From contig JAISHO010000037.1 of NCBI GenBank assembly GCA_031262485.1, positions 123,166-187,165 on the forward strand: a stretch of 64,000 bases of DNA, in the 5' to 3' direction. Below, in pieces: positions 40,518 to 64,000 of the stretch. The notes below the pieces were generated by a model. It was not told the DNA's origin and did no database searches. It saw only the letters and a program-made list of their open reading frames with translations. A program made the translations under genes and the position numbers. This stretch comes from Propionibacteriaceae bacterium. Lineage in GTDB: Bacteria; Actinomycetota; Actinomycetes; Propionibacteriales; Propionibacteriaceae. How positions within the stretch are numbered: the stretch's first letter is position 1; every line of letters begins with the position of its first letter.

Positions 40518-42128
40518 TCAGCGCAGGTCGCGGACGATGCCGAGCGCCTCGTCGTGGCGGCGCAACTCGGCGTTGACCGGCTCGATGACGTTGTCGACGG
40601 CGACTTTCTCGACCGCTTTCGACAAGGTCCGCTCGGTCATGGCCCGGCGCAGACGAGCGCCGGCTTTGACGCCGAGGCGGGACAGGCCGGCGATGATGAA
40701 GCCGATGAGGACGCCGCCGAGGGCGAGGATCGTCGGCAAGGGGATATTGCCGACCTTGAAGACGGGCAGTTCCGGCAACCCGAGGTAGGACTCGGCGATG
40801 GCGTTGAACCCGAGCCAGAGCAAGGAGGCGACGGTGGCGATGAGGACGAGCCATTGCAAGACACGGATGAACGTCCACCACCCGCTCTTGGCGGTGACAT
40901 CGATGTCGGTGGCGGCGACCGCTTGATCGAGCCGGTCGGGCAAATTGGTGGCACGATCCTCGAGCGCTTTGGCGATGGTGTCACGCCAGCCGCGGGGAAC
41001 CTTGGCCCCCGCGTCGGTGGCGACCGATCGCAGGGCTTGGTCGACCCGGGCCTGAGCGGCGGCCGAGGTCGTCGCCGGAAGGGCCGAGCGGGTCAGGGCG
41101 GTCGGGGCGATCTCCTTCGATTTGGCGGCGCCGAAGAGCTCGTCCAAACGAAGACGTTTGAGGGGGTCTTGGCGCAGTTTCCCGAGCCAGCTGAGGACGG
41201 GCCAGCCGGTGGCGATGGCGCCACGGCGGCGCCAGGAATCCTCGACCGCCTTGCCGATCGTCTCGACCCCGGCGACCTGGTCGAGGGAGCTGACGAGCTC
41301 TCCGGTGTGAGAGCGCGACACCGTCCCGGCTGGATCGCTGGCCAGGGTGGGGGCGAAGTCGGAGACGACGTCGACGACGTCGGCGTGCAGCCGACGGGCG
41401 GCGGCTTGCTTGGCGGTCGCCAACTGGCCGACCGCGTCGCGGAGCCGGTCGACGCCGTCACCGGTGAGGGCGGAGACGTCGAAGACACGGGGATCGGCGA
41501 TGCCGTCGCGATGCAGCAGATCGATGAGGTCGCGGTGGATGAGGGAGGTCTGCTCGGGGCCGACCCGATCGATCTGGTTGAGAGCGAAGAGCATGACGTC
41601 GCTGTGGCCGGCCAGGGGGGCGAGATAGCGCTCGTGGAGCACCTGATCGGCGTACTTCTGGGGGTCGAGCACCCAGATGAAAGCGTCGACGACTTCGACG
41701 AGCCGATCGACCTCGGCCCGGTTCGAGGTGACGATGGAATCGTGGTCGGCCAAATCGAGGAGGACGAGGCCGGCCATATCGTCGCCCGCCTCGGCGACGT
41801 GGCGACGGGAGATCTGCAGCCAATCGAGCAGAGCGCTGGTGTCGCGGTCGCCGAAAGTGACGGCCAGCGGCTGAGTCGTCATCGGGCGCTGCACCCCGGC
41901 GGCGGCCAGATCGGTGCGCGACAAGGCGTTGAAGAGGCTGGATTTCCCCGAGCCGGTGGCCCCGGCCAAGGCGACGACGGTGATGTCTCCGGCCAAGGAT
42001 TGGCGTCGGTCGATCCGGGTGAGAAGGTGATCGGCGCGGGCGGCCGTCTCCGCCGGAACCCGGCCCCGGGTCAGATCGAGGAGCCGGGTGAGCCGAGCGA
42101 TGTCGTCTGTGAGGTTCACCTCGGCCAT
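40518..42128 (-). CDS. Membrane-anchored dynamin-like / HSR1-type P-loop GTPase (second of a tandem pair)
   Basis: P-loop ALAGATGSGKSSLFNAL, NQID (G4-like), and two C-terminal TM helices (WWTFIRVLQWLVLIATVASLLWLGF and IPLPTILALGGVLIGFIIAGL). The start is 1 nt after the upstream stop. Confidence 0.7.
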   Translation of the reverse strand: MAEVNLTDDIARLTRLLDLTRGRVPAETAARADHLLTRIDRRQSLAGDITVVALAGATGSGKSSLFNALSRTDLAAAGVQRPMTTQPLAVTFGDRDTSALLDWLQISRRHVAEAGDDMAGLVLLDLADHDSIVTSNRAEVDRLVEVVDAFIWVLDPQKYADQVLHERYLAPLAGHSDVMLFALNQIDRVGPEQTSLIHRDLIDLLHRDGIADPRVFDVSALTGDGVDRLRDAVGQLATAKQAAARRLHADVVDVVSDFAPTLASDPAGTVSRSHTGELVSSLDQVAGVETIGKAVEDSWRRRGAIATGWPVLSWLGKLRQDPLKRLRLDELFGAAKSKEIAPTALTRSALPATTSAAAQARVDQALRSVATDAGAKVPRGWRDTIAKALEDRATNLPDRLDQAVAATDIDVTAKSGWWTFIRVLQWLVLIATVASLLWLGFNAIAESYLGLPELPVFKVGNIPLPTILALGGVLIGFIIAGLSRLGVKAGARLRRAMTERTLSKAVEKVAVDNVIEPVNAELRRHDEALGIVRDLR

Positions 42129-42129
42129 G

Positions 42130-44346
42130 TCACCACTCCTTCACCGGCTCATCCGTTCCCTCATCCCCCGTCGTCACCGCGTTCCCGCTCAGTTCTGGTG
42201 AGGCGCCCTCGCCGGGCTTCCTCGCATCAACGTTCCTGATCTCGATGTCGTCGCTCGTCGCCGCTTCGCTCGCCGCCGCGCTCTCGGCGGCGTCACGACC
42301 CCCCGACCAGCCGGTTCCCTCCGGAGAGGATTCCCCAGGCTCCTCGAGGGAGACGAACGGTTCATCTCCCCCCAGCGAGTCCGCCTCGCCAGGTGTCGAT
42401 CCGTCGACAGGTTCTCTCTTATCACCCGAGCCGACCGGCTTCTCCCCCGGCAGGGCCGGAGTCGCGGTCGGCGGCAGGTGAGTGCTGTCGACGATCGTCT
42501 CGAGACCGGGAGTCGCCGCGACCGGCAGACCGAGCCGGGTGACTTCGTCGCTGCGCACGGCGTCGATGTCGGCGGCGCAGTCGAGGATCGTGGCCGGATC
42601 GACCTCCTCGGGGGCGACACGGTCGAGGGTGCGGGAGAAGAGATAATCGCGTTGCCCGATGACGACGGCGTCGATCCGGCGATGGAGCTTCTCGGTCGCC
42701 TCGCGCGTGAGGCGACGGATCGCCTCGTCGCCGAAGATGAGCTCGAGCATCTTCTGGGCCACGACGGCGGTTCCGCCGGCGACTCCGATCTCGGCGCCGG
42801 CCAGCCCGCCGGTGTGAGCGAAGACGACGAGCATGAGGGCGACCCCGACGGCGTTGACGCCGAGAGCGGCGACCCTGGCTTGAGTCCGTTTGCCGGAACC
42901 GGCCGTCGAGACGAGTTCCATGACGTCGGATTGCCACTGGCGGATCGCGTTGTCGACCTGGGACGCATAATCGCTGGAGACCCGGGAAGGATCCCCTCCG
43001 GCCTGCTCGAGGAGGTGACGCCCGGCCGGATCGGCCTCCCAGATCTGCGTCACCCGGGCCACTCCCCGCTCGCCGGCCTCCAAGACGAGGGTCTCGAGTT
43101 CGGATTGGACGGCGACGGTGACCTCGGAAGCGGCCTTGGGCTCGCCCCGCAGCACCCGCCCGATGCGATCGCGCAGCCTCCCGATGCGGCTCTCGAGGTT
43201 GCGCATGAAAGCCCCGGCTCCGACGTAATCCTGCCAGCGCAGCAACACTTCCCCGCGCAGCAGAGTGCCGTCGTTCGTCTTGTTCTCCAAGGTCGTCACG
43301 ATGTCGGCGAAGATCGCTTCGGCGTCGTCGCGCAGTTGAGCCAATGTGTTGTTTTGATGCTCGATGGCGGTGGCGATCCGCGGCGCCTGGGAGGTGAGCG
43401 AGGCGATGGCCCCGTCGAGGGTCTTCATGACGATCCGAGCCCGGGTGCGTTGATCTCCGGCCAGGGCGGTGAGCCAGGCGTGGATCGGCGCCACCGCCGC
43501 CTGAGGCAGCAAGCCCGCCTCATCGACCGGGACTTCGGGCACGGCGAACAACGGTGAGCTGCCCAAGCCACGCTCGATCATCATCCCGGCTAGGTGTTTC
43601 GGCACCGGGCCCATGGCGGCGGGCGGCACCCGATCGACGACGACGGCGACGGCGGCGCTGCGCCCGACCGCGCTCGTCAGATAATCCCAGGGCACGGCGT
43701 CGGCGTAGCGGGCGGCCGAGGTGACGAAGAGCCACATGTCGGCGGCGGCCAGCAGCTGAGAGGCCAGTTTCCGGTTGGCGGAATCGACCGAGTCGATGTC
43801 GGGGGCGTCGAGGAGGGCGAGCCCGCGTGGCAGGGCCGTCGAGGCGACGGTGTGCAGATCGCGCGGATTGGAGGATTCGGTGATAGAGCGGGCCAGGCCA
43901 GGCAGGACGCGGTCGTCGCTGAACCAGGTGGAGTCGTCGGGGTGGTGGATGAGCACCGGCGCCTTCGTCGTCGGCCGGATGACCCCGGGGCGGCTGACGA
44001 CCTGGCGTAGGAGCGAGTTGACGAGGGTCGACTTCCCTGCCCCGGTCGAACCGCCGACGACGGCCAACAAGGGCGCCTCGATCGTGGCGAGGCGGGGCAG
44101 GATGTAGTCGTCGAGTTGTTTGAGGTCGTCGGTGATCTGCTCACGGATCGCGCCCGCCTCGGGGGTCGGCACGGCGAGCCGGGTGCGACGAAGGAGGCCT
44201 TGGAACTGTTCCAGCCCATCGCCCAGGGAGATCGCCATCCGAATGAACCCGCTTCCGTCGTCTCGAGGGAATCCAGCGCCGGACTCGCCGTCGCGCGGAT
44301 CGTGGCCGCCACGCTCTTTCTCACGCGCCGTGTCGAGCCTCAACAA
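42130..44346 (-). CDS. Dynamin-like / HSR1-type P-loop GTPase (first of a tandem pair) with Gly-rich hydrophobic hairpin and acidic disordered tail
   Basis: P-loop AVVGGSTGAGKSTLVNSLL, a long helical region, and a hydrophobic segment VAALGVNAVGVALMLVVFAHTGGLAGAEIGVAGGTAVVA. The last ~140 aa are Asp/Glu/Ser/Gly/Pro-rich. The start could instead be the ATG at 44238 (MAISLGDGLEQ). Confidence 0.7.
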   Translation of the reverse strand: MLRLDTAREKERGGHDPRDGESGAGFPRDDGSGFIRMAISLGDGLEQFQGLLRRTRLAVPTPEAGAIREQITDDLKQLDDYILPRLATIEAPLLAVVGGSTGAGKSTLVNSLLRQVVSRPGVIRPTTKAPVLIHHPDDSTWFSDDRVLPGLARSITESSNPRDLHTVASTALPRGLALLDAPDIDSVDSANRKLASQLLAAADMWLFVTSAARYADAVPWDYLTSAVGRSAAVAVVVDRVPPAAMGPVPKHLAGMMIERGLGSSPLFAVPEVPVDEAGLLPQAAVAPIHAWLTALAGDQRTRARIVMKTLDGAIASLTSQAPRIATAIEHQNNTLAQLRDDAEAIFADIVTTLENKTNDGTLLRGEVLLRWQDYVGAGAFMRNLESRIGRLRDRIGRVLRGEPKAASEVTVAVQSELETLVLEAGERGVARVTQIWEADPAGRHLLEQAGGDPSRVSSDYASQVDNAIRQWQSDVMELVSTAGSGKRTQARVAALGVNAVGVALMLVVFAHTGGLAGAEIGVAGGTAVVAQKMLELIFGDEAIRRLTREATEKLHRRIDAVVIGQRDYLFSRTLDRVAPEEVDPATILDCAADIDAVRSDEVTRLGLPVAATPGLETIVDSTHLPPTATPALPGEKPVGSGDKREPVDGSTPGEADSLGGDEPFVSLEEPGESSPEGTGWSGGRDAAESAAASEAATSDDIEIRNVDARKPGEGASPELSGNAVTTGDEGTDEPVKEW

Positions 44347-46501: not shown

Positions 46502-46951
46502 TCACGCCTCGACTCGGTCGATGGCGACGAACACGCAGTTGACCTCGTCGGCGGGCTCCTCGAGCGCAAGGGTCGTCTCGACGGTCGTCTCCTCGCCGGG
46601 CCCGACGGGATCGGTCGTGAGAGCCTCGCGGGCGACGACGTTGCCGTTCGAGGCGTCGGCTAGACGCAACGCCATCTCATAGGTGACGGTGTCGTCGGTC
46701 GTGTTCGTGACGGACGCCTCGACTTTGTATTCGCCGTCTTCCCCGGTCGGCTCGCAGGTCGTGATGGCGACGTCGGCCCGGGCATCGAGATTGTTGGCGA
46801 TGTCGGACCCGGGGCCGATGACGGTGACGGGCGTCTCACTGGCCTCGGGTTGGCCGAGAGTCGTTTGGCAACCGGCCATGACGAGGGCGCCGAGACCGAT
46901 CCCGGCGGCGAGGGCGAGAGCGCGGATCCTCGCAGGGGGGCGCGTCAGCAT
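46502..46951 (-). CDS. Small secreted lipoprotein, single beta-sandwich-like domain, function unknown
   Basis: ATG at 46951 with SD GAAGGA. Signal peptide MLTRPPARIRALALAAGIGLGALVMAG/C with a lipobox Cys. The mature part is Thr/Glu/Val-rich. The track's longer start (47029) lies in AT-rich non-coding-looking sequence. Confidence 0.65.
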   Translation of the reverse strand: MLTRPPARIRALALAAGIGLGALVMAGCQTTLGQPEASETPVTVIGPGSDIANNLDARADVAITTCEPTGEDGEYKVEASVTNTTDDTVTYEMALRLADASNGNVVAREALTTDPVGPGEETTVETTLALEEPADEVNCVFVAIDRVEA

Positions 46952-47000
46952 AACCATCCTTCTTTCATTGTTTTCGACTGTGTTCCGAACTAGCAATTTG

Positions 47001-47029
47001 ATTATTTCGTTGTTTATTGATCGATCCAA
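47001..47029 (-). promoter_or_regulatory. Candidate promoter of the lipoprotein gene
   Basis: Minus strand has TTGGAT (47029-47024), a 17-nt spacer, then AATAAT (47006-47001), within a conspicuously AT-rich ~80-bp patch. Confidence 0.3.
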
Positions 47030-47099
47030 GATCCTCGTCCGCGCGCCGCTCGATCATCGGCGACGTCGTGCGGCGAGACCGAGGAACCCTTCCGGACCC

Positions 47100-59100: not shown

Positions 59101-62100
59101 GTCTTCTCAAGGGTGAGCGAGTTGTTGCTATCGGCGGGGACGACGGTGTCGTCGGGCGGGGAGACCGGCGGAGTCACGCCGGTCGGCGGAACCGCCGTGG
59201 CGGTGGCCGAGTTCGTCACCGACCCGTTGTCGACGTCGGCTTGGGTGACGGTGTGGGTCCCGGTGCACCGGGCCGTCTTGCCCGGAGCGATCGAGGTGGC
59301 CGGGCAGGCGACGTCGGTGGCGGCCGGGTCGTCGATCGACGGCGTGTCGACGGTCACGTTGCCGGTGTTGGTGATGACGAAGGTGTAGGAGACAGTCTCG
59401 CCGAGATTGGCTTTGCCGTCGCCGTTAGCGTCGCCCAAGGAGGCCGTCTTGGCGACGGTGAGATCGGCGAGTCGGCCGGTCGGCACGTTCGCCGTCGAGG
59501 GGGTCGAGGTGACATCGCCGGTCGGCGAGGTTCCCTTCGCGGTGGCGGTGTTGGTGATGTTCGGCCCGCCGTCCATGTCGGCCTGGGTGACGATGTAGGT
59601 GGCGGTGCAGGTGATCGTCACTCCTGGCGCGATCGTCGTCGAGGGGCAGGAGACGGTTCCTGCCTTGGGGTCGGTCACCGAGACGGCCGTCAAGGTTGAG
59701 GAGCCGGAGTTGGTGACGGCGAAGGAGTAGGAGATCGTCTCGCCCGGCTGGGCCAAGGCGTCGGCGTTGGCGTCGTTGAGCTTGGCCGATTTCACGAGGC
59801 TGATCTCGGCGGTGCGGTCAGCCGGTGTCGTCGTCGTCGAAGTGTTCGAGGTGATGGCCGAGCCGTCGCTGCCCGGCCCGGTCGAGGTGCCCCCGGCCGT
59901 CGCCGTGTTGGCGACTTGACCGGCGTCAATGTCGGCTTGAGTGACGGTGTACGTGGCGGTGCACGTCGTCGAGGCGCCGGGAGCCAAGGTGGTGACGGGG
60001 CAGGTCGCGCCGGTGATCTTGGCGTCGTTGATCTTGAGCGAACTCATCGTCGTCGAACCGGTGTTCGTGACGTCGAAGGTGTAGGTGATCGTCTCCCCGC
60101 GATCGGCCTTGCCGTCGGCGTCGGAGTCGGTCAGCTTCGCCTGTTTGAGCAACGTGGCCGACTTCGTGCCAAAGATCGTCAGGGGGTAGTCCTCGACCTC
60201 GCCACCGGTCAGTTCGCCGGTCGCGGCGAGACCCGAGGAGGAACCGGGAACGATCCGGAAGCGGGCGAACGTCGGACCTGGAACCGTCGTGGAGGGCACC
60301 GCCGCCCAGGTCAAGGTGGCGCTCGTCGCCCCGGCCGCCACCGAGGCGGTGGCCCGTTCGTCGTTCTCAAAGGTTCCGTTGTGGTTGAAGTCGATCCAGC
60401 CCGAGACGGTCGCGACCGCGCCGGAGGTGTTCGTCACCGTCACGGGAATGGTGACGGGTGTGGTCTGCCGGTCGGTGATGACCGGGAAGGTTCCGACCCC
60501 CGTCTCATCATCGGTGTTGTTATTGTCGTCGCCGGAGGCGTCGGAGGAGGTCTTCGCGACCGGTTCCATGTCGATCGACGTGCCGAGCATGACGGGCGAT
60601 GTCCCTGCGGTCGTCGAGCCGCTGGCCGGTGTGAGGGCGGTGACGAGGTGAGAAGCGGAGAGGTAGCTGGCCGGTGCGTCTCCGAAGTCCAAAGCGTTGA
60701 CGCGCGGGATCTGATAATCCTCGACCTCGCCGTCGGTCGTGATCCCCGTCGGTTGGAGCGTCGTGCCGGCCGGGCCGATCCGCACCCGCATGAAGGTGTT
60801 CATCTTCGAGACGGCGTCGGAAGGCACCGTCCAGGTCAATGTGGCCGCTCCGCCCGAACATGTCGTTTGGGCAGACTTCTCCGCCACATCAAAGACGCCA
60901 TTGCCGTTCCAGTCGAGCCAGGCCGCCACCGCGCCAGCGCCGGAACAGGTGACCGAGGTCGGATACGTGTAGGTCGTCCCGGGGGCGGCGTTGAGGTAGG
61001 TGACCGGCGAGAGTCCGTCGTCGTTGTCGTCGGCGCTCGCGTTGGCGCTGTGCATGAGTGTTGTGTCGGCCGTCTCGCCGGCGCCCAACCGCATCGTCGG
61101 ATACCCCGGCGTCGCCAATGTGAAGTTGTTAAACACATTAGTTGTTACCGTGCCGGTGCCCGTGGTGTTCGCCGCTGGGACGCCGCCACTGAAGGTGCCT
61201 TGGTAAATGGCGCCGGCGTCGCCGTAGGTGGCCGGGGCGTCGCCGTAGTCGGCGCCGAGGACGGTGCCGATGGCTCCGGCGGAGGTGGCGGTGGTGCTGG
61301 ACATCGAGTTGACGAGCAGAACGGCGTCGATCGATCCATCCGCATTCGCTCCTTCGGCATAGCCGAGAGCGATCGGGCCACTGCCGGAGCACTGGGTCCC
61401 ATCGGATCGCATGTCGAGCCGATTCCCGTTGGGGTAGGTCTGAGCGACCGTCGAAGTCGTGCAGCTGGAGGGACGATATCGCTCGATGATCCGCCAGGTC
61501 ACCTTGACCCCGTTTTGAATTTGAAGACCGACGAATTCAGTCTGGGAGGGACTGGCGTTCGGGGCGTAGTTGTTCTGTTCGGCGTCGGCGAAGACCAACC
61601 CTTTGAGGGGCACTGGAGTCGTCCCATCGAGGGTGGCTTTACAATTGAAATAGATATACATCGAACCCGGGTTATACGTCTGCGTGCCGTTCGAGATGCC
61701 AGAAACCATCTGGTTCGACGTTCCGGTGCCGCCGATGTTGTAGAGATCGTCGAGGGCGTCACCGCCCCAGGTTCCAGATATATAGGTGTACGCCTTGTTG
61801 GACCCCACCGTGTCACTGGGTTGCACCTGACTGATAGAGCACGTGGTGACGAGCGAGGAGGCGCCGACTGTTTGCGTCGTCGTCGCCGTCATCCCAGCGG
61901 TGACTTCCGTGTTCGCGGCGTTGCTCCACTCCATCCAGTTGATGATCGAGCGGTATATCCCATTGCCGCCAGTGGCGTAGCGCGCGTCCGCCTCCGGCGT
62001 CGCCCAGGGGGCGATCGTGATGAAGGTGGCCGTGAGCACCGAGACGGCGGCGATCGTCGTCCACCGCTGCCAGAAACCGACATGCTTCGTCGTCAAATCC

Positions 62101-62108
62101 CGTGTCAT
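47169..62108 (-). CDS. Giant (4,979 aa) sortase-signal cell-wall-anchored surface protein: signal peptide, ~250-aa head domain, two GEVED-motif domains, 35 tandem ~120-aa Ig-like repeats (DUF11/DUF7507-like), IPNTG anchor
   Basis: Uninterrupted 14,940-nt ORF. N-terminal signal peptide ...TFITIAPWATPEADA. DYGDAP...GEVEDY occurs twice. I counted 35 repeats by their conserved ..TQ(A/x)D(V/I)D.G motif. C-terminus is WIPNTG + hydrophobic helix + RRGRRRSD. Confidence 0.88.
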   Translation of the reverse strand: MTRDLTTKHVGFWQRWTTIAAVSVLTATFITIAPWATPEADARYATGGNGIYRSIINWMEWSNAANTEVTAGMTATTTQTVGASSLVTTCSISQVQPSDTVGSNKAYTYISGTWGGDALDDLYNIGGTGTSNQMVSGISNGTQTYNPGSMYIYFNCKATLDGTTPVPLKGLVFADAEQNNYAPNASPSQTEFVGLQIQNGVKVTWRIIERYRPSSCTTSTVAQTYPNGNRLDMRSDGTQCSGSGPIALGYAEGANADGSIDAVLLVNSMSSTTATSAGAIGTVLGADYGDAPATYGDAGAIYQGTFSGGVPAANTTGTGTVTTNVFNNFTLATPGYPTMRLGAGETADTTLMHSANASADDNDDGLSPVTYLNAAPGTTYTYPTSVTCSGAGAVAAWLDWNGNGVFDVAEKSAQTTCSGGAATLTWTVPSDAVSKMNTFMRVRIGPAGTTLQPTGITTDGEVEDYQIPRVNALDFGDAPASYLSASHLVTALTPASGSTTAGTSPVMLGTSIDMEPVAKTSSDASGDDNNNTDDETGVGTFPVITDRQTTPVTIPVTVTNTSGAVATVSGWIDFNHNGTFENDERATASVAAGATSATLTWAAVPSTTVPGPTFARFRIVPGSSSGLAATGELTGGEVEDYPLTIFGTKSATLLKQAKLTDSDADGKADRGETITYTFDVTNTGSTTMSSLKINDAKITGATCPVTTLAPGASTTCTATYTVTQADIDAGQVANTATAGGTSTGPGSDGSAITSNTSTTTTPADRTAEISLVKSAKLNDANADALAQPGETISYSFAVTNSGSSTLTAVSVTDPKAGTVSCPSTTIAPGVTITCTATYIVTQADMDGGPNITNTATAKGTSPTGDVTSTPSTANVPTGRLADLTVAKTASLGDANGDGKANLGETVSYTFVITNTGNVTVDTPSIDDPAATDVACPATSIAPGKTARCTGTHTVTQADVDNGSVTNSATATAVPPTGVTPPVSPPDDTVVPADSNNSLTLEKTATLNDADGDAKADAGESITYSFLVTNTGSQTLHSISVTDDKLGTVSCGTANLAPGASVTCTANHPVPSREINDGAIVNHATASGVSPSNTTVTSPQDTASVPTDRHASLSFTKVSQLNDLDGDDLGDVGETVTYTLTVTNNGSVTLTDVNVTDPKIPDLSCTHPSLTAFAQFECTATYTITQSDIDAGILTNTATATGTPPAGVTPPTPQTGTAVVNLDVTRGGTLVKTAHLNDTNGDGVAQVGETIDFTFDVTNTSTITIYSNEIVDAKLREANIVPKCTLTTLAPGASTTCTATGYTVTQADVDAGKVTNTAYAQGNSSDGTPGVTNTDTTETPTSTKASQTLAKKATLVDANNNSSADVGETVTYTFTVTNTGDVSLHGMAVDDRMLKAAGATITCPNAEGTQPAGAVVTCSASYTVTQADVDAGTITNTATATAYDPSNKEVPSNEATATVTSTRTSSLTVVKKGELNDTVTVNDLADVGETIDYTFTVTNTGNVSVTAPVIDDAKLKAAGVSITCPAGVIAPTGHVDCTATYTVTQQDVDHGSVDNAATATATPPNGVTPPTSPETTTTTPANDKPSLAIEKTPSLVDGDGDDKADVGETIDYSFKVTNNGAVTITDPTVDDAKITSSGVTITCPTGPLAPGATITCTASYVVNQNDVDSGSVHNTATATGKSPDGTKVTSPLVQTDVPVDSTSEVSLVKKATLNDTVTANQLADAGETIDYTFTVTNSGNVSVRAPQVSDAKLTAAGVTITCPSDVIRPGGTAECTASYTVTQTDIDNGTVANEATATATTPNGGTTPPSDPSKTTTPVDDTPSSTLDKVATLADANGNGTGDAGERINYTFTLTNTGKVTLSDPVITDEMLASAGAPITCGAGPVEPGATLTCTARYDITQADVNKGSVPNSATGTTKTPGGDSNTTPPDDTVTTVDTTASATLTKTPSLVDTNSNNLADAGENITYTFVFTNNGKVTLTDPVVNDAKLAAAGVAISCPSGDVAPGGSVTCTALYTTVLADIDAGSVDNTATATAKTPTGTTTTPETSAKVPAYVEPALTVLKQGELHDEDGDGKADVGELIDYTLTITNTGTVTLTDVTGHDQKLQDAVPALTVDCPSETLTPNSSMVCTAKGYTVTQEDVDSGTVHNTSTATGQPPTPTGSTTPPAEVTSPPGNHDVTTDNTPALTVEKKATLNDTVTANQLADVGETIDYTFTITNTGNVTMTAPEITDAKLKDANVIPTCPDEPILPGKTLDCTATYTVTQADIDAGKVENTATATATPPTPSGSDTPPDPVTSPPDTHTTDANDEPGLTVTKKATLNDGNGNDLADLGETIAYTFTVTNTGQVTITAPQIDDPMLAGADPAVTVTCPPDQIDPGHSRECTATYTVTQADVDKGSVENSATAKGTTPSGDPITSPPSDTTTDTDRTPAITVDKTAKLNDGDGDGLADPGETIDYSFTVTNTGEVTLTDPTLDDPLLANADPAVTPDCPKGAVAPGDSITCTATYTVTQADVDAKSVHNSVTATATPPDGVTPPTGTDTTTTTTDSRNGLKMVKTSQLNDTTAEGHVDGLADVGETITYTFTATNTGTTTLYGLDIDDPMLDAVQPTPVPIDCPAGTIAPGAERVCTATYTVTQADVDKGSIKNAATVQGTDPSGDPVPPPSGTTDVEVPSNYAGGLVVTKEAALTDGDDDGLADVGETIVYSFVLRNTGEVTLSNPTITDEKLDAATPAVTITCPETTLAVGASMTCTSTPYTVTQPDVDSGSVANEATGTATTPPTTDHPDGTTVTTPPSNKNVPTDRTPNLTVVKSAKLAHDADGDGLADAGDTIAYTFTATNKGTVTLTNLVIDDDMLAAVTPDPVAITCPKTTLAPDESTDCTATYTVTQDDVDKGQVHNVATGTADNPAGDPPTHSGETTTTTTVDTNSSLTIDKTATLNDVDAAGHTAGKADVGETIDYSFLITNTGSVTVTKPAVNDPKIGTVTCSSEPIVPGGTRTCTATYTVTQADVDAGSVNNSATATGTDPTGKTTTSPPDTTTTPSNTTPGLSVDKTSTLNDTIVVNEKADKGETIHYTFTVTNTGTVTMRLLEAQDAKLGAADTTITCPTGPLAPGDTAKCTATYTVTQADIDAGAVTNSATVSGTPPDGNKITSPPDDNTVTVDNTPAMTLKKTASLADLDKDGYADAGEVITYTFVVTNTGTVTISGGDDAVTIADPKLAAATPSVTPTCPKTAITPGGTLTCTAVYTVTQQDVDSGQIANTATATGKSPAGDVPPATDTTTTTTDTTSAITLRKDAALDDLDGDGKADVGEKITYTLTVTNTGNVTVNTPTVDDPKLAAAGVAVTFPADPIPPKGTAQATAVYTVTQDDIDAGTILNEATATAKTPPTPDHPDGGTTPPAPSTVTTTVDNTPKVDLVKAASLTNGDADGDGKADVGDVITYTFTVTNSGNVSVTAPHIDDPFLTQKGVDITCPELTTPLKPGSDLVCSASYTVVQADVDAGGVENEATVTAKTPPTPDQPNGGTTPPGTSTTTTPGDDTPGVTVSKQAQLDDRDGNGKADVGEMIRYVFTVENTGMTTLRGITINDPSLAALGTTVTCPVSSIAPGKTLECTAAHTVTQTDVDAGSVANSATATANPPTGDPITSPPDDTTTPSDQTPGIGLTKSATLHDLDGDGLADAGESITYTFTITNSGTVTASAAAISDPMLKAEGVDVTCPATAIAPGEQLTCSAVHVVTQEQVDAGVVANTATATVTTPGGPGTGTDGDTTDVDDHGALTMVKTSLLADQDGDLVADAGETIAYTFTVRNIGNVTMSSPKINDAKLAGAGITPVCPAGPIAPGGSIECTATYTVTQGDIDSGSVTNVATATGNPPSGDPITSPPDTDTTTVDDTPSLSVVKTSKLNDKDGDDLADAGETIDYTFVVTNTGAVTVTAPAISDTKLALAGVTPTCPSDPIAPGEKATCTATYPITQTDVDAGQVVNSATATGTTPDGGTTPPSSPSTTTTPGDSTSSLTVDKAASLNDANFNQLADVGETIDYTFTITNTGSVTLSGPSVSDDKLTAAGVTPTCPSGPIAPGDKAVCTASYTVTQADVDAGTVHNEATATANPPGGITPPMAPPTSPPDTTDTPSNQTPAVSVVKKATLNDLDGDGLADAGETITYTFTISNTGTTTVARIGVDDAMLKAAGVTPTCPAGQLAPGASSECTATYTVTQADVDKGTIANSATATAVPPSGTPITSPPGETTTTTDDNPSLSVEKKGTLRDLDGDGLADAGETIAYTFTITNNGGVTVTAPAISDPKLEAAGVAITCPAGPIQPKRTATCTAIYTVTQADVDAGSVANSATATGKTPDGSDVPPSPPGTTTTPSDSTPGLTVAKSASLQDGNANSLADVGEVIDYTFTITNTGMVTLTAPGIDDAKLTDAGVAISCPADSIAPGGTAECTASYTVTQADVDAGVVRNEATATATPPTPSGGGGTPPAPVTSPPDDVETPANDTDGVTMVKTATITNDDGDGLADAGETIQYTFTITNTGTVSLNSLSVDDPMMTRTNTPVACPSIVLGPGESTTCTAEYTVTQADIDSGSLVNTASGRGKTPGGDDVPTPPSTETTGVDDHPGLTVSKSSTLDDSNGNGVADLGETLRYTITVANTGAVTMSGITVSDPTLEAAGVTVTCPVNSLAPGASTQCTAPYTVTQADLDRGTIANSATASGKTPGGDDITSPPGSNTVTPRSDPKYTFVKNASLDDQDGDGLADSGETITYSFVFTNTGTVTLSGLTVSDDMVGTVTCPAGELAPGDSMTCSAPPYTVTDADVEAGGVSNTASGTTHTPDTIACTGDMSQADVDDRLLQAVLTRDNAPVLRAFTNECPPVPSTVTTTTDVPPTPNPDHHGPIINDDPTPTPSPAPSGGTPTGKTGGNITIIVDNGRTVTYGASPMTTPTTTGKGWIPNTGTTIGLATIIVALASLTVGGILVRRGRRRSD
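47640..60179 (-). repeat. Array of 35 diverged tandem coding repeats (~355-390 bp each) inside the giant adhesin gene
   Basis: Consensus read from the protein: xLxVxK.A.LND.DGDG.AD.GETI.YTFTVTNTG.VT....V.D.KL..AGV..TCP.G.IAPG....CTATYTVTQADVDAG.V.N.ATATG..P......TSPP..TTT. Copies are diverged at the DNA level, not identical. Confidence 0.9.
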
Positions 62109-62132
62109 ATCCCGTTCCCATTCCCCCCGCCA

Positions 62133-62179
62133 CCGAAACCCCCCGGTTTCGGCCGCGCCCAGGTCTCCACACCTGGCGC
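62133..62179 (-). promoter_or_regulatory. Structured 5' leader of the giant adhesin gene (two hairpins)
   Basis: On the mRNA strand: GCGCCAGG-TGTGGAGA-CCTGG(G)CGC (62179-62155), then CCGAAACC-GGGG-GGTTTCGG (62152-62133), then GGGAACGGGAT immediately before the ATG. Confidence 0.35.
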
Positions 62180-62195
62180 ATAGCGGTTTGACATG

Positions 62196-62224
62196 ACGCT
62201 AATAAGAGAACGGAGACATGTCAA
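62196..62224 (-). promoter_or_regulatory. Candidate promoter of the giant adhesin gene
   Basis: Minus strand has TTGACA (62224-62219), a 17-nt spacer, then TAGCGT (62201-62196). The -35 is a consensus match and the -10 fits TAnnnT. The leader to the ATG at 62108 is about 80 nt. Confidence 0.45.
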
Positions 62225-62257
62225 CTTTAAAATTGCTAGTAGAAGTCTCGATCGCTC

Positions 62258-62272
62258 GTGCCTCATGGGCAC
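62258..62272. promoter_or_regulatory. 15-bp palindrome centred between the divergent promoters (candidate operator)
   Basis: GTGCC-TCATG-GGCAC lies 33 nt from the minus-strand -35 and 34 nt from the plus-strand -35. Confidence 0.35.
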
Positions 62273-62306
62273 ACCTCGAACCATCCCTTCATCCACAATT
62301 TGAAAC

Positions 62307-62336
62307 TTGACATGTTTCTATCTATGTGCGTACGGT
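62307..62336 (+). promoter_or_regulatory. Candidate promoter of the second adhesin gene
   Basis: TTGACA (62307-62312), an 18-nt spacer, then TACGGT (62331-62336). The leader to the ATG at 62419 is about 76 nt. Confidence 0.4.
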
Positions 62337-62418
62337 CGAACAAGCGATGGCGCGCCAGGCCAGGGGTGGAGTCCTGCCCGGCGACGGGGGCCGTCGCGAG
62401 GGGAACGGGATAATACTT

Positions 62419-64000
62419 ATGCGCACACGCGATCGTGGAACCACATCACCACAACGGGAAATGGCGCTCGGCGCCGCGATCTTCTTGGTCGCCTCCCTCA
62501 TCACCTTCTCGCCGCAGGCCGCGACGCCGGCCCGGGCGGATTACGCCACGGGTGGCTCCGGCATCTACAAGGGCGTCATCAACTGGATGCCCTGGGGCGG
62601 GGGGGCCTCGGGAACCGATCAGAAACTGCTTGTCAATGGCGACAGCTCGACGGTCACCCAGACGATCGGAACCTCGCAGCTCGTGACGACCTGCACCCTC
62701 GACTCCATCGGCTCAGACCACAGCACGAACACGATTTACTCTTATCGCTCCGGCGATTGGTATGGCGACGCCCTCGACAATCTCTACAACATTGGCCATG
62801 ACGGCAACACAAACGCCCTCATCGCCGGGATCTCGAATGGGACCCAGACCATCAAAAACGCCGGATCGATGTATTTCAACGTTCGCTGCAACGCGACACT
62901 CGATGGGGCAGCCATTCCCATCAAAGGTCTCGTCATCGCCGACGCCGAGCAGAACAATAACGCAGGCAGCGACACCGAATACATCGCCGCTCAACCCCTC
63001 AGCACCGAGATCAGCAAGGTGACCGCGTGGCGTCTCCTCGAGCGTTATCGCGCCACCGGATGCACGACGTCGACGAACGCCGTTCTCAACACAACTAACC
63101 AACGTGTCGATCTGAAATCGAGCGCCGAGCAGTGCAATCCTGCCAGCGTCGGCCCCGGGCCGATCGCCCTCGCCTATATGGAAGGGGTCTCGAACGCCGC
63201 CATCGTCATCAACTCGGCAAGCGGAAATGTCTCGGCCATCTCTTTCGGCACCGTCCTCGGCCTCGACTACGGCGACGCTCCCGCCACCTACGGCGACGCC
63301 GGCGCCGTGTACCAAGGCACGTTCACGGGCGGGAATCTCGCCTCCGGCACCAATGACACCTTCACGATGACGCCGGCCATCCTCAACCAACCGTCCATCC
63401 GTCTCGGCGCCGGCGTCACCGCCGACCCCGCCGCCCTCCACGACAACACCGACACCAACGACGACGGTCTGACGGCCACCGCCTCGGTCACCGCCGCCCC
63501 GGGGACGACCTACACCTACCCGACCGCAGTCACCTGTTCGGGCGAGGGATCGGCCGTGGCGGCCTGGCTCGACTGGAACGGCAACGGCGTCTTCGACGCG
63601 GGAGAGAAGTCCACACAAACCACCTGCTCGAGCAACGCCGCCACCCTCAGTTGGACGGTGCCCTCCGACGCCGTCGCCCAGCAGAACTCCTGGCTCCGGG
63701 TGCGGATCGGCCCGGCTGGGACGACGTTGGCCGCGACCGGCGCGACGACGAGCGGCGAGGTCGAGGACTACCAGCTCACCCGCGTCGAGATGACCGACTA
63801 CGGCGACGCCCCGGCCAGCTACGGCACCGCCCAGCACCTCATCACGACGATCACCTCGACCGGCGGCACGCCCGCCGGCACGGCGGGCACGACGACCCTC
63901 ATGCTAGGCTCCTCGATCGACTTGGAGGCGGCCCCGGCGACCTCGGCCGACGCCACCGGTGACGACAGCCTCAACACTGACGACGAGACCGGCGTCACCG
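62419..64000 (+). CDS. Second giant-adhesin paralogue (N-terminal 527 aa only; continues beyond window)
   Basis: Own translation (frame open to the window end, so absent from the ORF track): MRTRDRGTTSPQREMALGAAIFLVASLITFSPQAATPARA/DYATGGSGIYKGVINWMPWGG...GLDYGDAPATYGDAGAVYQGTF...AAWLDWNGNGVFDAGEKS...SGEVEDYQLTRVEMTDYGDAPASYG... It is collinear with residues ~40-560 of the 4,979-aa protein. Confidence 0.85.
   Translation, partial: MRTRDRGTTSPQREMALGAAIFLVASLITFSPQAATPARADYATGGSGIYKGVINWMPWGGGASGTDQKLLVNGDSSTVTQTIGTSQLVTTCTLDSIGSDHSTNTIYSYRSGDWYGDALDNLYNIGHDGNTNALIAGISNGTQTIKNAGSMYFNVRCNATLDGAAIPIKGLVIADAEQNNNAGSDTEYIAAQPLSTEISKVTAWRLLERYRATGCTTSTNAVLNTTNQRVDLKSSAEQCNPASVGPGPIALAYMEGVSNAAIVINSASGNVSAISFGTVLGLDYGDAPATYGDAGAVYQGTFTGGNLASGTNDTFTMTPAILNQPSIRLGAGVTADPAALHDNTDTNDDGLTATASVTAAPGTTYTYPTAVTCSGEGSAVAAWLDWNGNGVFDAGEKSTQTTCSSNAATLSWTVPSDAVAQQNSWLRVRIGPAGTTLAATGATTSGEVEDYQLTRVEMTDYGDAPASYGTAQHLITTITSTGGTPAGTAGTTTLMLGSSIDLEAAPATSADATGDDSLNTDDETGVT

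Follow-up and report, generated by a model that had tools for sequence, protein, structure and literature searches.

The spacer between two head-to-head CshA-type adhesin genes of a Propionibacteriaceae bacterium as the probable hinge of an old inverted duplication

Several described systems resemble the locus considered here, a 310-bp spacer between two divergently oriented adhesin genes of an uncultured Propionibacteriaceae bacterium, which lies in a 64,000-nucleotide stretch of contig JAISHO010000037.1 (assembly GCA_031262485.1; the whole stretch is called the window below). Among adhesins the closest known system is that of CshA and CshB of Streptococcus gordonii, a paralogous and sortase-anchored pair in which, as here, an NR2 domain precedes a GEVED domain and a long repeat stalk (PMC10952558); in adhesins related to CshA and CshB, NR2 is invariably followed by GEVED (PMC10952558). 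With regard to promoters, the divergent housekeeping-sigma promoters of Propionibacterium acnes and other Actinobacteria share with those predicted here the TTG of the -35 box and a TAnnnT -10 box at 17-18 nt (PMC3848588). TAnnnT is the vegetative -10 box of P. acnes, a relative in the same family with mapped start sites (PMC3848588). Divergent actinobacterial promoters are also alike in being non-overlapping and outward-facing, with an AT-rich intergenic core. Another example is that of shared operators, in which a dyad lies midway between two divergent promoters, as does the palindrome GTGCC-TCATG-GGCAC in this spacer. The same palindrome resembles the short, small-loop hairpin repeat that fold-back or template switching would leave at the axis of an inverted duplication. 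Template switching is known at quasipalindromes (PMC7202029; reviewed in PMC7999016). The comparison of the two halves of the spacer and of the two genes indicates that a CshA-type adhesin gene was probably duplicated long ago in inverted orientation, together with its promoter and leader, with the spacer as the hinge.

The minus-strand gene encodes a signal peptide (a hydrophobic N-terminal segment), a CshA_NR2 domain (PF18651, 4.8e-34), a GEVED domain (PF20009, 7.4e-29), about 35 DUF7507 stalk repeats, and a C-terminus with an IPNTG sorting signal, a hydrophobic stretch and an RRGRRR basic tail; the domains, stalk, signal and anchor of a CshA/CshB-type adhesin are thus all found in it. The sorting signal reads IPNTG, not LPXTG, and no sortase gene occurs among the genes of the window. 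Only the N-terminus of the plus-strand gene lies inside the window, and this visible part has a signal peptide, CshA_NR2 (PF18651, 1.1e-37) and GEVED (PF20009, 4.3e-17) in the same order. The N-terminal regions of the two proteins are 58% identical over 511 aligned residues, and, judged by sequence, both genes are paralogues of the fibrillar-adhesin-related kind of CshA and CshB. An earlier sequence-only reading of the spacer had recognized them as head-to-head paralogues, and this has been confirmed; its description of both genes as giant applies to the minus gene, the plus gene being visible for its 5' part only (Table 1).

The two halves of the spacer are mirror images in origin. The arm 62266-62418 and the reverse complement of the arm 62109-62265 are homologous, with a mirror axis placed at 62265.5 by an axis scan, and a repeat search found three inverted-repeat pairs on this one axis (62108-62135 with 62385-62412, 62160-62177 with 62359-62376, and 62213-62235 with 62296-62318). 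The mirror alignment of the arms scores 73, against 6.9 ± 3.9 (maximum 25) for dinucleotide shuffles, and the control alignment of the arms in the same orientation scores 16, which is the shuffle level. A weak mirror likeness persists even in the central 30+30 nt (p = 0.015), and the inverted homology extends into the coding regions, where the longest segment, of 234 nt, is 76% complementary and another, of 88 nt, is 90% complementary. The 88-nt segment (61183-61270 and 63245-63332), which encodes a DYGDAPATYGDAG-type motif before the GEVED domain, is 90% identical against an average of roughly 62%; its likeness could come from strong constraint or from a gene-conversion tract.

The age of the duplication determines how the non-coding likeness is to be read. 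Where the paralogues have the same residue, their four-fold degenerate sites agree in 53% of cases, against the 46% expected from codon usage, so the duplication is, on this sequence measure, old, with synonymous sites near saturation. Unconstrained non-coding DNA should therefore retain almost no likeness, and islands of 20/23 and 16/18 identical positions require selection, as neutral sites are nearly randomised. For this reason we read the islands as probable footprints of purifying selection; they appear too short and too scattered for gene-conversion tracts.

The best example of such an island, called island C here, has the consensus CAATTTNAAANTTGACATGTNTC, agrees at 20 of 23 positions between the arms, and occurs at only these two sites in the window when three mismatches are allowed. 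In both arms it joins an AT-rich upstream element, which contains the quasi-dyad CAAnTTnnAAnTTG, to a perfect TTGACA -35 box. The hexamer TTGACA alone occurs at chance frequency in the window. On the other hand, the pattern TTGACA-N16-19-TANNNT has exactly two matches on both strands of the 64 kb, against 0.09 expected, and each match faces its own gene; both -10 boxes fit the P. acnes TAnnnT, and a CAA at the predicted start site is common to both arms. Back-to-back promoters are thus well supported as a prediction from these patterns. The promoter layouts given in the sequence-only reading (TTGACA, 18 nt, TACGGT on the plus strand; TTGACA, 17 nt, TAGCGT on the minus strand) are present at the positions it gave, the -35 boxes are 82 nt apart with the palindrome 33 and 34 nt from them, and the leader lengths counted from the predicted start sites are nearly equal, as it had claimed. 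Its further claim of back-to-back promoters agrees with the two pattern matches, by which each arm would carry a good housekeeping-type promoter in the right place and orientation.

Both predicted leaders, 62343-62418 (+) and 62109-62189 (-), can form two hairpins at matching positions. In hairpin 1 the motif GCCAGGNGTGGAGNCCTG is identical at 16 of 18 positions between the arms, and the stem core CAGG/CCTG and the loop GTGGAG are kept. In hairpin 2 the loop is G-rich and the place is the same, but the stems are wholly different (GCGACGG/CCGTCGC in one arm, CCGAAACC/GGTTTCGG in the other) and still pair, so that the pairing has been kept while the sequence changed. A GGGGAAYGGGA block stands just before the ATG of both genes. 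The minus leader folds better than its shuffles (z = -3.2). Judging from these two copies, the two-hairpin leader could be an undescribed cis-regulatory element. The sole Rfam match, to a long non-coding RNA model inside a coding region, was rejected as spurious.

These observations can be joined in a single model. An ancient head-to-head duplication would have copied a sortase-anchored CshA-type adhesin gene with its own promoter and 5' leader; neutral sites would since have been almost randomised, and the matches that remain between the arms would mark the working parts of each copy. These parts would be the AT-rich upstream element fused to the consensus -35 box (CAATTTNAAANTTGACATGT), the TANNNT -10 box 17-18 nt downstream of it, the CAA start-site context, a two-hairpin leader of about 76-81 nt, and the GGGGAAYGGGA ribosome-binding block. 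The result would be two back-to-back, non-overlapping housekeeping-sigma promoters whose predicted start sites are separated by about 154 bp, and each adhesin gene would be transcribed from its own promoter with an equivalent structured leader. The mirror geometry would be inherited: an inverted duplication that took in promoter and leader should by itself give leaders of equal length, mirrored -35 boxes and a palindrome at the centre, and no shared regulator is needed to account for them. The coordinates of the features are collected in Table 1.

Table 1. Features of the two adhesin genes and of the spacer between them (positions in the window; promoter, leader and ribosome-binding features are predictions)
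Feature	Position	Strand	Basis and remarks
Giant fibrillar adhesin gene, 4979 aa	47169-62108	-	Open reading frame, Pfam, C-terminus read
Paralogous adhesin gene, 5' part, 527 codons to window edge	62419-64000	+	Translation, Pfam, identity to minus gene
Spacer, probable hinge of inverted duplication	62109-62418		Inverted repeats, arm alignment, axis scan
Island C, plus arm: CAATTTGAAACTTGACATGTTTC, AT-rich element and -35 TTGACA (62307-62312)	62296-62318	+	20/23 identical to minus copy
Island C, minus arm: CAATTTTAAAGTTGACATGTCTC, -35 TTGACA (reverse complement of 62219-62224)	62213-62235	-	Inverted-repeat search
Predicted -10 TACGGT, plus promoter, 18 nt past -35	62331-62336	+	Pattern; predicted start near 62343, leader about 76 nt
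Predicted -10 TAGCGT, minus promoter, 17 nt past -35	62196-62201	-	Pattern; predicted start near 62189, leader about 81 nt
Third TTGACATG copy, between -10 and predicted start of minus promoter	62188-62195	+	Repeat search, shuffles
Palindrome GTGCC-TCATG-GGCAC, axis 62265.0	62258-62272		Sequence, shuffles, axis scan
Leader hairpin 1, plus: stem CCAGG/CCTG.., loop GGTGGAGT, -8.9 kcal/mol	62358-62379	+	Folding, inverted repeat
Leader hairpin 1, minus: stem GCGCCAGG/CCTGGGCGC, loop TGTGGAGA, -16.0 kcal/mol	62155-62179	-	Folding, inverted repeat
Leader hairpin 2, plus: GCGACGG-GGG-CCGTCGC, -12.3 kcal/mol, ends 21 nt before ATG	62381-62397	+	Folding
Leader hairpin 2, minus: ..CCGAAACC-GGGG-GGTTTCGG.., -23.3 kcal/mol, ends 19 nt before ATG	62128-62157	-	Folding
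Purine block GGGGAACGGGA, ribosome-binding region, plus gene	62400-62410	+	Inverted repeats, arm alignment
Purine block GGGGAATGGGA, ribosome-binding region, minus gene	62116-62126	-	Inverted repeats, arm alignment

Several observations weigh against this model. A scan of the spacer by Escherichia coli criteria reported no promoter, which is explained by the -10 boxes matching TATAAT at only 3/6 positions; in the -35 motif of P. acnes, GnTTnG, the upstream part is also unmatched here except for the TTG. The two arms share ancestry and are therefore not independent observations of a promoter, and gene conversion between inverted copies could hold short tracts similar without selection. As for the leaders, the plus leader folds no better than its shuffles (z = -0.73), no Rfam match was obtained in either leader even at E-values of up to 10, and a conserved RNA structure is only suggestive, two sequences being too few for proof. 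Finally, no orthologous locus that could serve as an independent check was found in searches of a genome collection, a protein database and metagenome DNA or by synteny.

The searches nevertheless placed the locus among its relatives. The genome collection, from which the species is absent, gave only two distant relatives (36-38% identity), and in the protein database the best homologues are 38-42% identical, with none above 42%. No contig was retrieved with the exact protein sequence of the giant adhesin or of the EttA copy of the window. The region upstream of the closest homologue (38% identity; contig L003) is unrelated to the spacer. In L003 (5964-16163) a histidine kinase (HisKA_3) and a response regulator of the LuxR/GerE type, the latter split, stand ahead of this adhesin homologue, and a two-component system may be the usual regulator of this adhesin family; the adhesin stalk of L003 is split over several open reading frames, probably by frameshifts in a long-read assembly. 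In metagenome DNA, a pattern made of the -35 box and hairpin 1 had 0 matches. With regard to synteny, the EttA protein of the window is 88-90% identical to the EttA of Propionibacteriaceae metagenome bins, which places the source, a contig of about 219 kb, in an uncultured member of this family, and these related bins keep the block from EttA to oligoribonuclease and have a ferritin where the adhesin pair sits here. In the bins L066 (1-1511) and L067/L068 (1-2948), the ferritin (and a KilA-N gene) replaces the lipoprotein gene and the adhesin pair, and the L066 contig ends 227 bp past the ferritin. The adhesin pair looks lineage-specific, or else lost from short-read assemblies.

The sequence-only reading had taken the mirror layout as a sign that one dimeric regulator controls both genes, coordinately or as a switch. 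The layout is real, but it is poor evidence for such a regulator, since an inverted duplication yields the same symmetry; a mirror symmetry between head-to-head paralogues is inherited and by itself says nothing on a shared regulator, so that one regulator for both genes would not be supported by the symmetry of this locus. A shared operator has to be judged on the palindrome itself. According to this explanation, a dimer bound at GTGCC-N5-GGCAC, about 77 bp upstream of both predicted starts, would set both genes together or as a switch. The perfect 5+5 bp dyad is no more than half a base off the mirror axis, the CATG at 62264-62267 being centred exactly on it, and the spacing from the axis to island C is exactly 30 nt in each arm despite indels in the leaders, which could reflect a spacing constraint. 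Of shuffles of the central 82 bp, only 1.9% contain an inverted repeat with 5-bp arms that is centred to within 1 nt, but 37.5% contain such a repeat at some position. When the simulations allow for a residual mirror identity of 13-30%, a range suggested by the coding and central regions, 4-10% of them give a centred repeat. Furthermore, the palindrome was picked after inspecting the sequence; it has no further exact copy in the window, where variants with one mismatch are at chance level; no transcription-factor or other regulator gene is visible among the genes of the window; and there is no orthologous locus among those searched that could show conservation. A shared operator is compatible with the duplication model, and we regard it as rather unlikely. 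The palindrome is weak evidence for an operator and is what an inverted duplication leaves at its hinge. By analogy it could be the short hairpin where a fold-back or template-switch event began; a hairpin at the axis is the junction that fold-back or template switching would leave.

A second explanation concerns the arms separately. The quasi-dyad CAAnTTnnAAnTTG in each arm might be the binding site of a class II-type activator of its own, and not a passive element like the UP element. Island C is the best-conserved part of the spacer, the quasi-dyad has internal symmetry (half-site matches of 5/7 and 6/7), and it overlaps the -35 box in each arm, its centre lying about 41 bp upstream of the predicted start. 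Such a position fits class II activation, as in the CRP/FNR systems. However, AT-rich UP-like elements account for the same conservation, the dyad is imperfect, and no cognate factor is known. The metagenome DNA scan with island C returned 62 matches, nearly all of them in low-GC contigs of AT-rich genomes and none beside an adhesin homologue, and all were treated as chance. An activator site in each arm is therefore, in our judgement, unlikely.

Base composition suggests a third explanation. The genome has a GC content of roughly 68%, against about 44% in the spacer core. The lowest GC of the window at the 200-bp scale (0.495) is found at 62144-62343, and at the 100-bp scale the spacer core and 46939-47038 are about equal (0.42 and 0.41); the statement in the sequence-only reading that the spacer is the most AT-rich stretch of the window is thus correct for the core but not for the whole 310 bp, which have 57% GC. 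Lsr2-family proteins of high-GC Actinobacteria prefer AT-rich DNA, and the core 62188-62336 (43.6% GC, and one of the two stretches of the window that are richest in AT) might be a nucleation site at which an Lsr2-type nucleoid protein silences both adhesin genes with no sequence-specific operator at all. AT-richness is, on the other hand, equally expected of any strong promoter region, and this explanation is doubtful. A rare AT-rich 11-mer, ACTAGCAATTT, in which the strongly avoided CTAG occurs, is present in inverted orientation at 46989-46999 (+) and 62230-62240 (-). These places fall in the two stretches of highest AT content in the window, one at either end of the 15-kb adhesin gene. Its recurrence may be chance, since 25 other 11-mers of the spacer also recur in the window. 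The possibility that 46989-47014 is a decayed third copy of island C was set aside, as the 11-mer is common to both but the overall likeness is only about 68%.

The octamer TTGACATG raises the question of one-sided control. It has only three copies in the 64-kb window, against 0.61 expected, all within 127 bp of the spacer: at 62188-62195 (+), 62217-62224 (-) and 62307-62314 (+), exactly where the sequence-only reading had placed them. Two of them contain the -35 boxes. The third has no counterpart in the plus arm, where the homologous place reads CGAACAAG and only the start-site CAA is common, so that it does not belong to the symmetric design. Together with the minus -35 box it forms the inverted repeat TTGACATG-N21-CATGTCAA, which covers one promoter from the -35 box to the start site and brackets its -10 box; a repressor at this repeat would turn off the minus gene independently of the plus gene, and the two adhesins would be expressed differentially. 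An extra octamer copy in the spacer is found in 0.3-0.5% of shuffles (a nominal chance of 0.003-0.005, p about 0.004), and it is the least expected element here. Nevertheless, the half-sites are 29 bp apart from centre to centre, about 2.75 helical turns, which is unusual for a simple dimer; the repeat was selected after inspecting the sequence; and template switching perfects imperfect inverted repeats without any function (PMC7202029). The third octamer could be a half-site for a repressor of one gene, could have been perfected as a repeat by template switching, or could be due to luck, and the independent operator appears improbable. This third copy was also considered as the -35 box of a further plus-strand promoter, and this was discarded as no TANNNT follows 16-19 nt downstream. 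A methylation switch at CATG, which occurs in all three octamers and at the axis, was likewise rejected: CATG is not avoided in the window (observed/expected 1.07), and four copies in 130 bp are not significant window-wide. Combining these elements, the hinge would be a dedicated symmetric control module in which a dimer at the axis sets both promoters, perhaps with the arm-specific TTGACATG repeat shutting one gene off, and in which the leader is a new adhesin-specific post-transcriptional element; there is little likelihood of such a module.

The likeness between the arms might also have been upheld by occasional gene conversion, in which case the conserved islands would be leftover conversion tracts and not the product of selection on regulatory elements. 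Inverted paralogues do recombine, and one coding segment, the 88-nt one, is 90% identical. But the islands are short (11-23 nt), parted by diverged sequence and indels, and coincide with the -35 box, the start site, the hairpin loop and the ribosome-binding site, and in hairpin 2 the pairing is kept with a different sequence, which conversion cannot produce; hence this explanation is very improbable. Finally, the inverted repeats that flank the centre might suggest an invertible or recombinational phase-variation switch, which can be practically dismissed because the promoters lie in the repeats and already face outwards, so that inverting a mirror-symmetric segment alters nothing, no recombinase gene was found among the genes of the window, and the arms are too diverged for homologous recombination.

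The remainder of the window is ordinary chromosome, with nuo and trp operons, EttA and oligoribonuclease. Between the oligoribonuclease gene and the minus adhesin gene there is a small lipoprotein gene (46502-46951, minus strand) with the lipobox LVMAGC and a likely start at the ATG near 46951; its promoter-like site, TTGGAT-17-AATAAT, falls within AT-rich DNA at 46960-47040. At 40518-44346 (minus strand), two genes for dynamin-like GTPases adjoin a gene for a PrsW-family protease, an order that is kept in the related bins L066-L068.

The reading of the spacer as the hinge of an inverted duplication has some practical consequences. The comparison of two old paralogues can replace the comparison of species where an organism has no sequenced relatives. 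In this uncultured Propionibacteriaceae bacterium, the surviving islands would mark a strong promoter and a structured leader of a 15-kb adhesin gene; both are candidates for expression tools in high-GC Actinobacteria, and the locus may serve as a starting point for studying how giant adhesins are regulated.

Compared with the known systems, the arrangement of this locus, in which paralogues stand head to head behind homologous promoters, appears to be an ordinary one in a new organism, possibly with a new structured leader. The genes cshA and cshB are at distant loci (PMC10952558), whereas the present pair is adjacent, head to head and joined by a common hinge; its stalk is made of DUF7507/DUF11 repeats, and no protein found exceeds 42% identity to its N-terminal region. 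Unlike the promoters of P. acnes, the two promoters predicted here are homologous copies of each other and have the full E. coli-type TTGACA, stronger than the P. acnes consensus, with start sites deduced from the pattern. Where shared operators are known, the regulator is usually the product of one of the two divergent genes; here both encode adhesins, and the statistical support for the dyad is marginal. With respect to fold-back duplications, the event here would be ancient, with a junction indistinguishable from chance or from a selected site, and fold-back or template switching is put forward as a possible kind of mechanism by its likeness to the hairpin repeats that such duplications carry at their axis.

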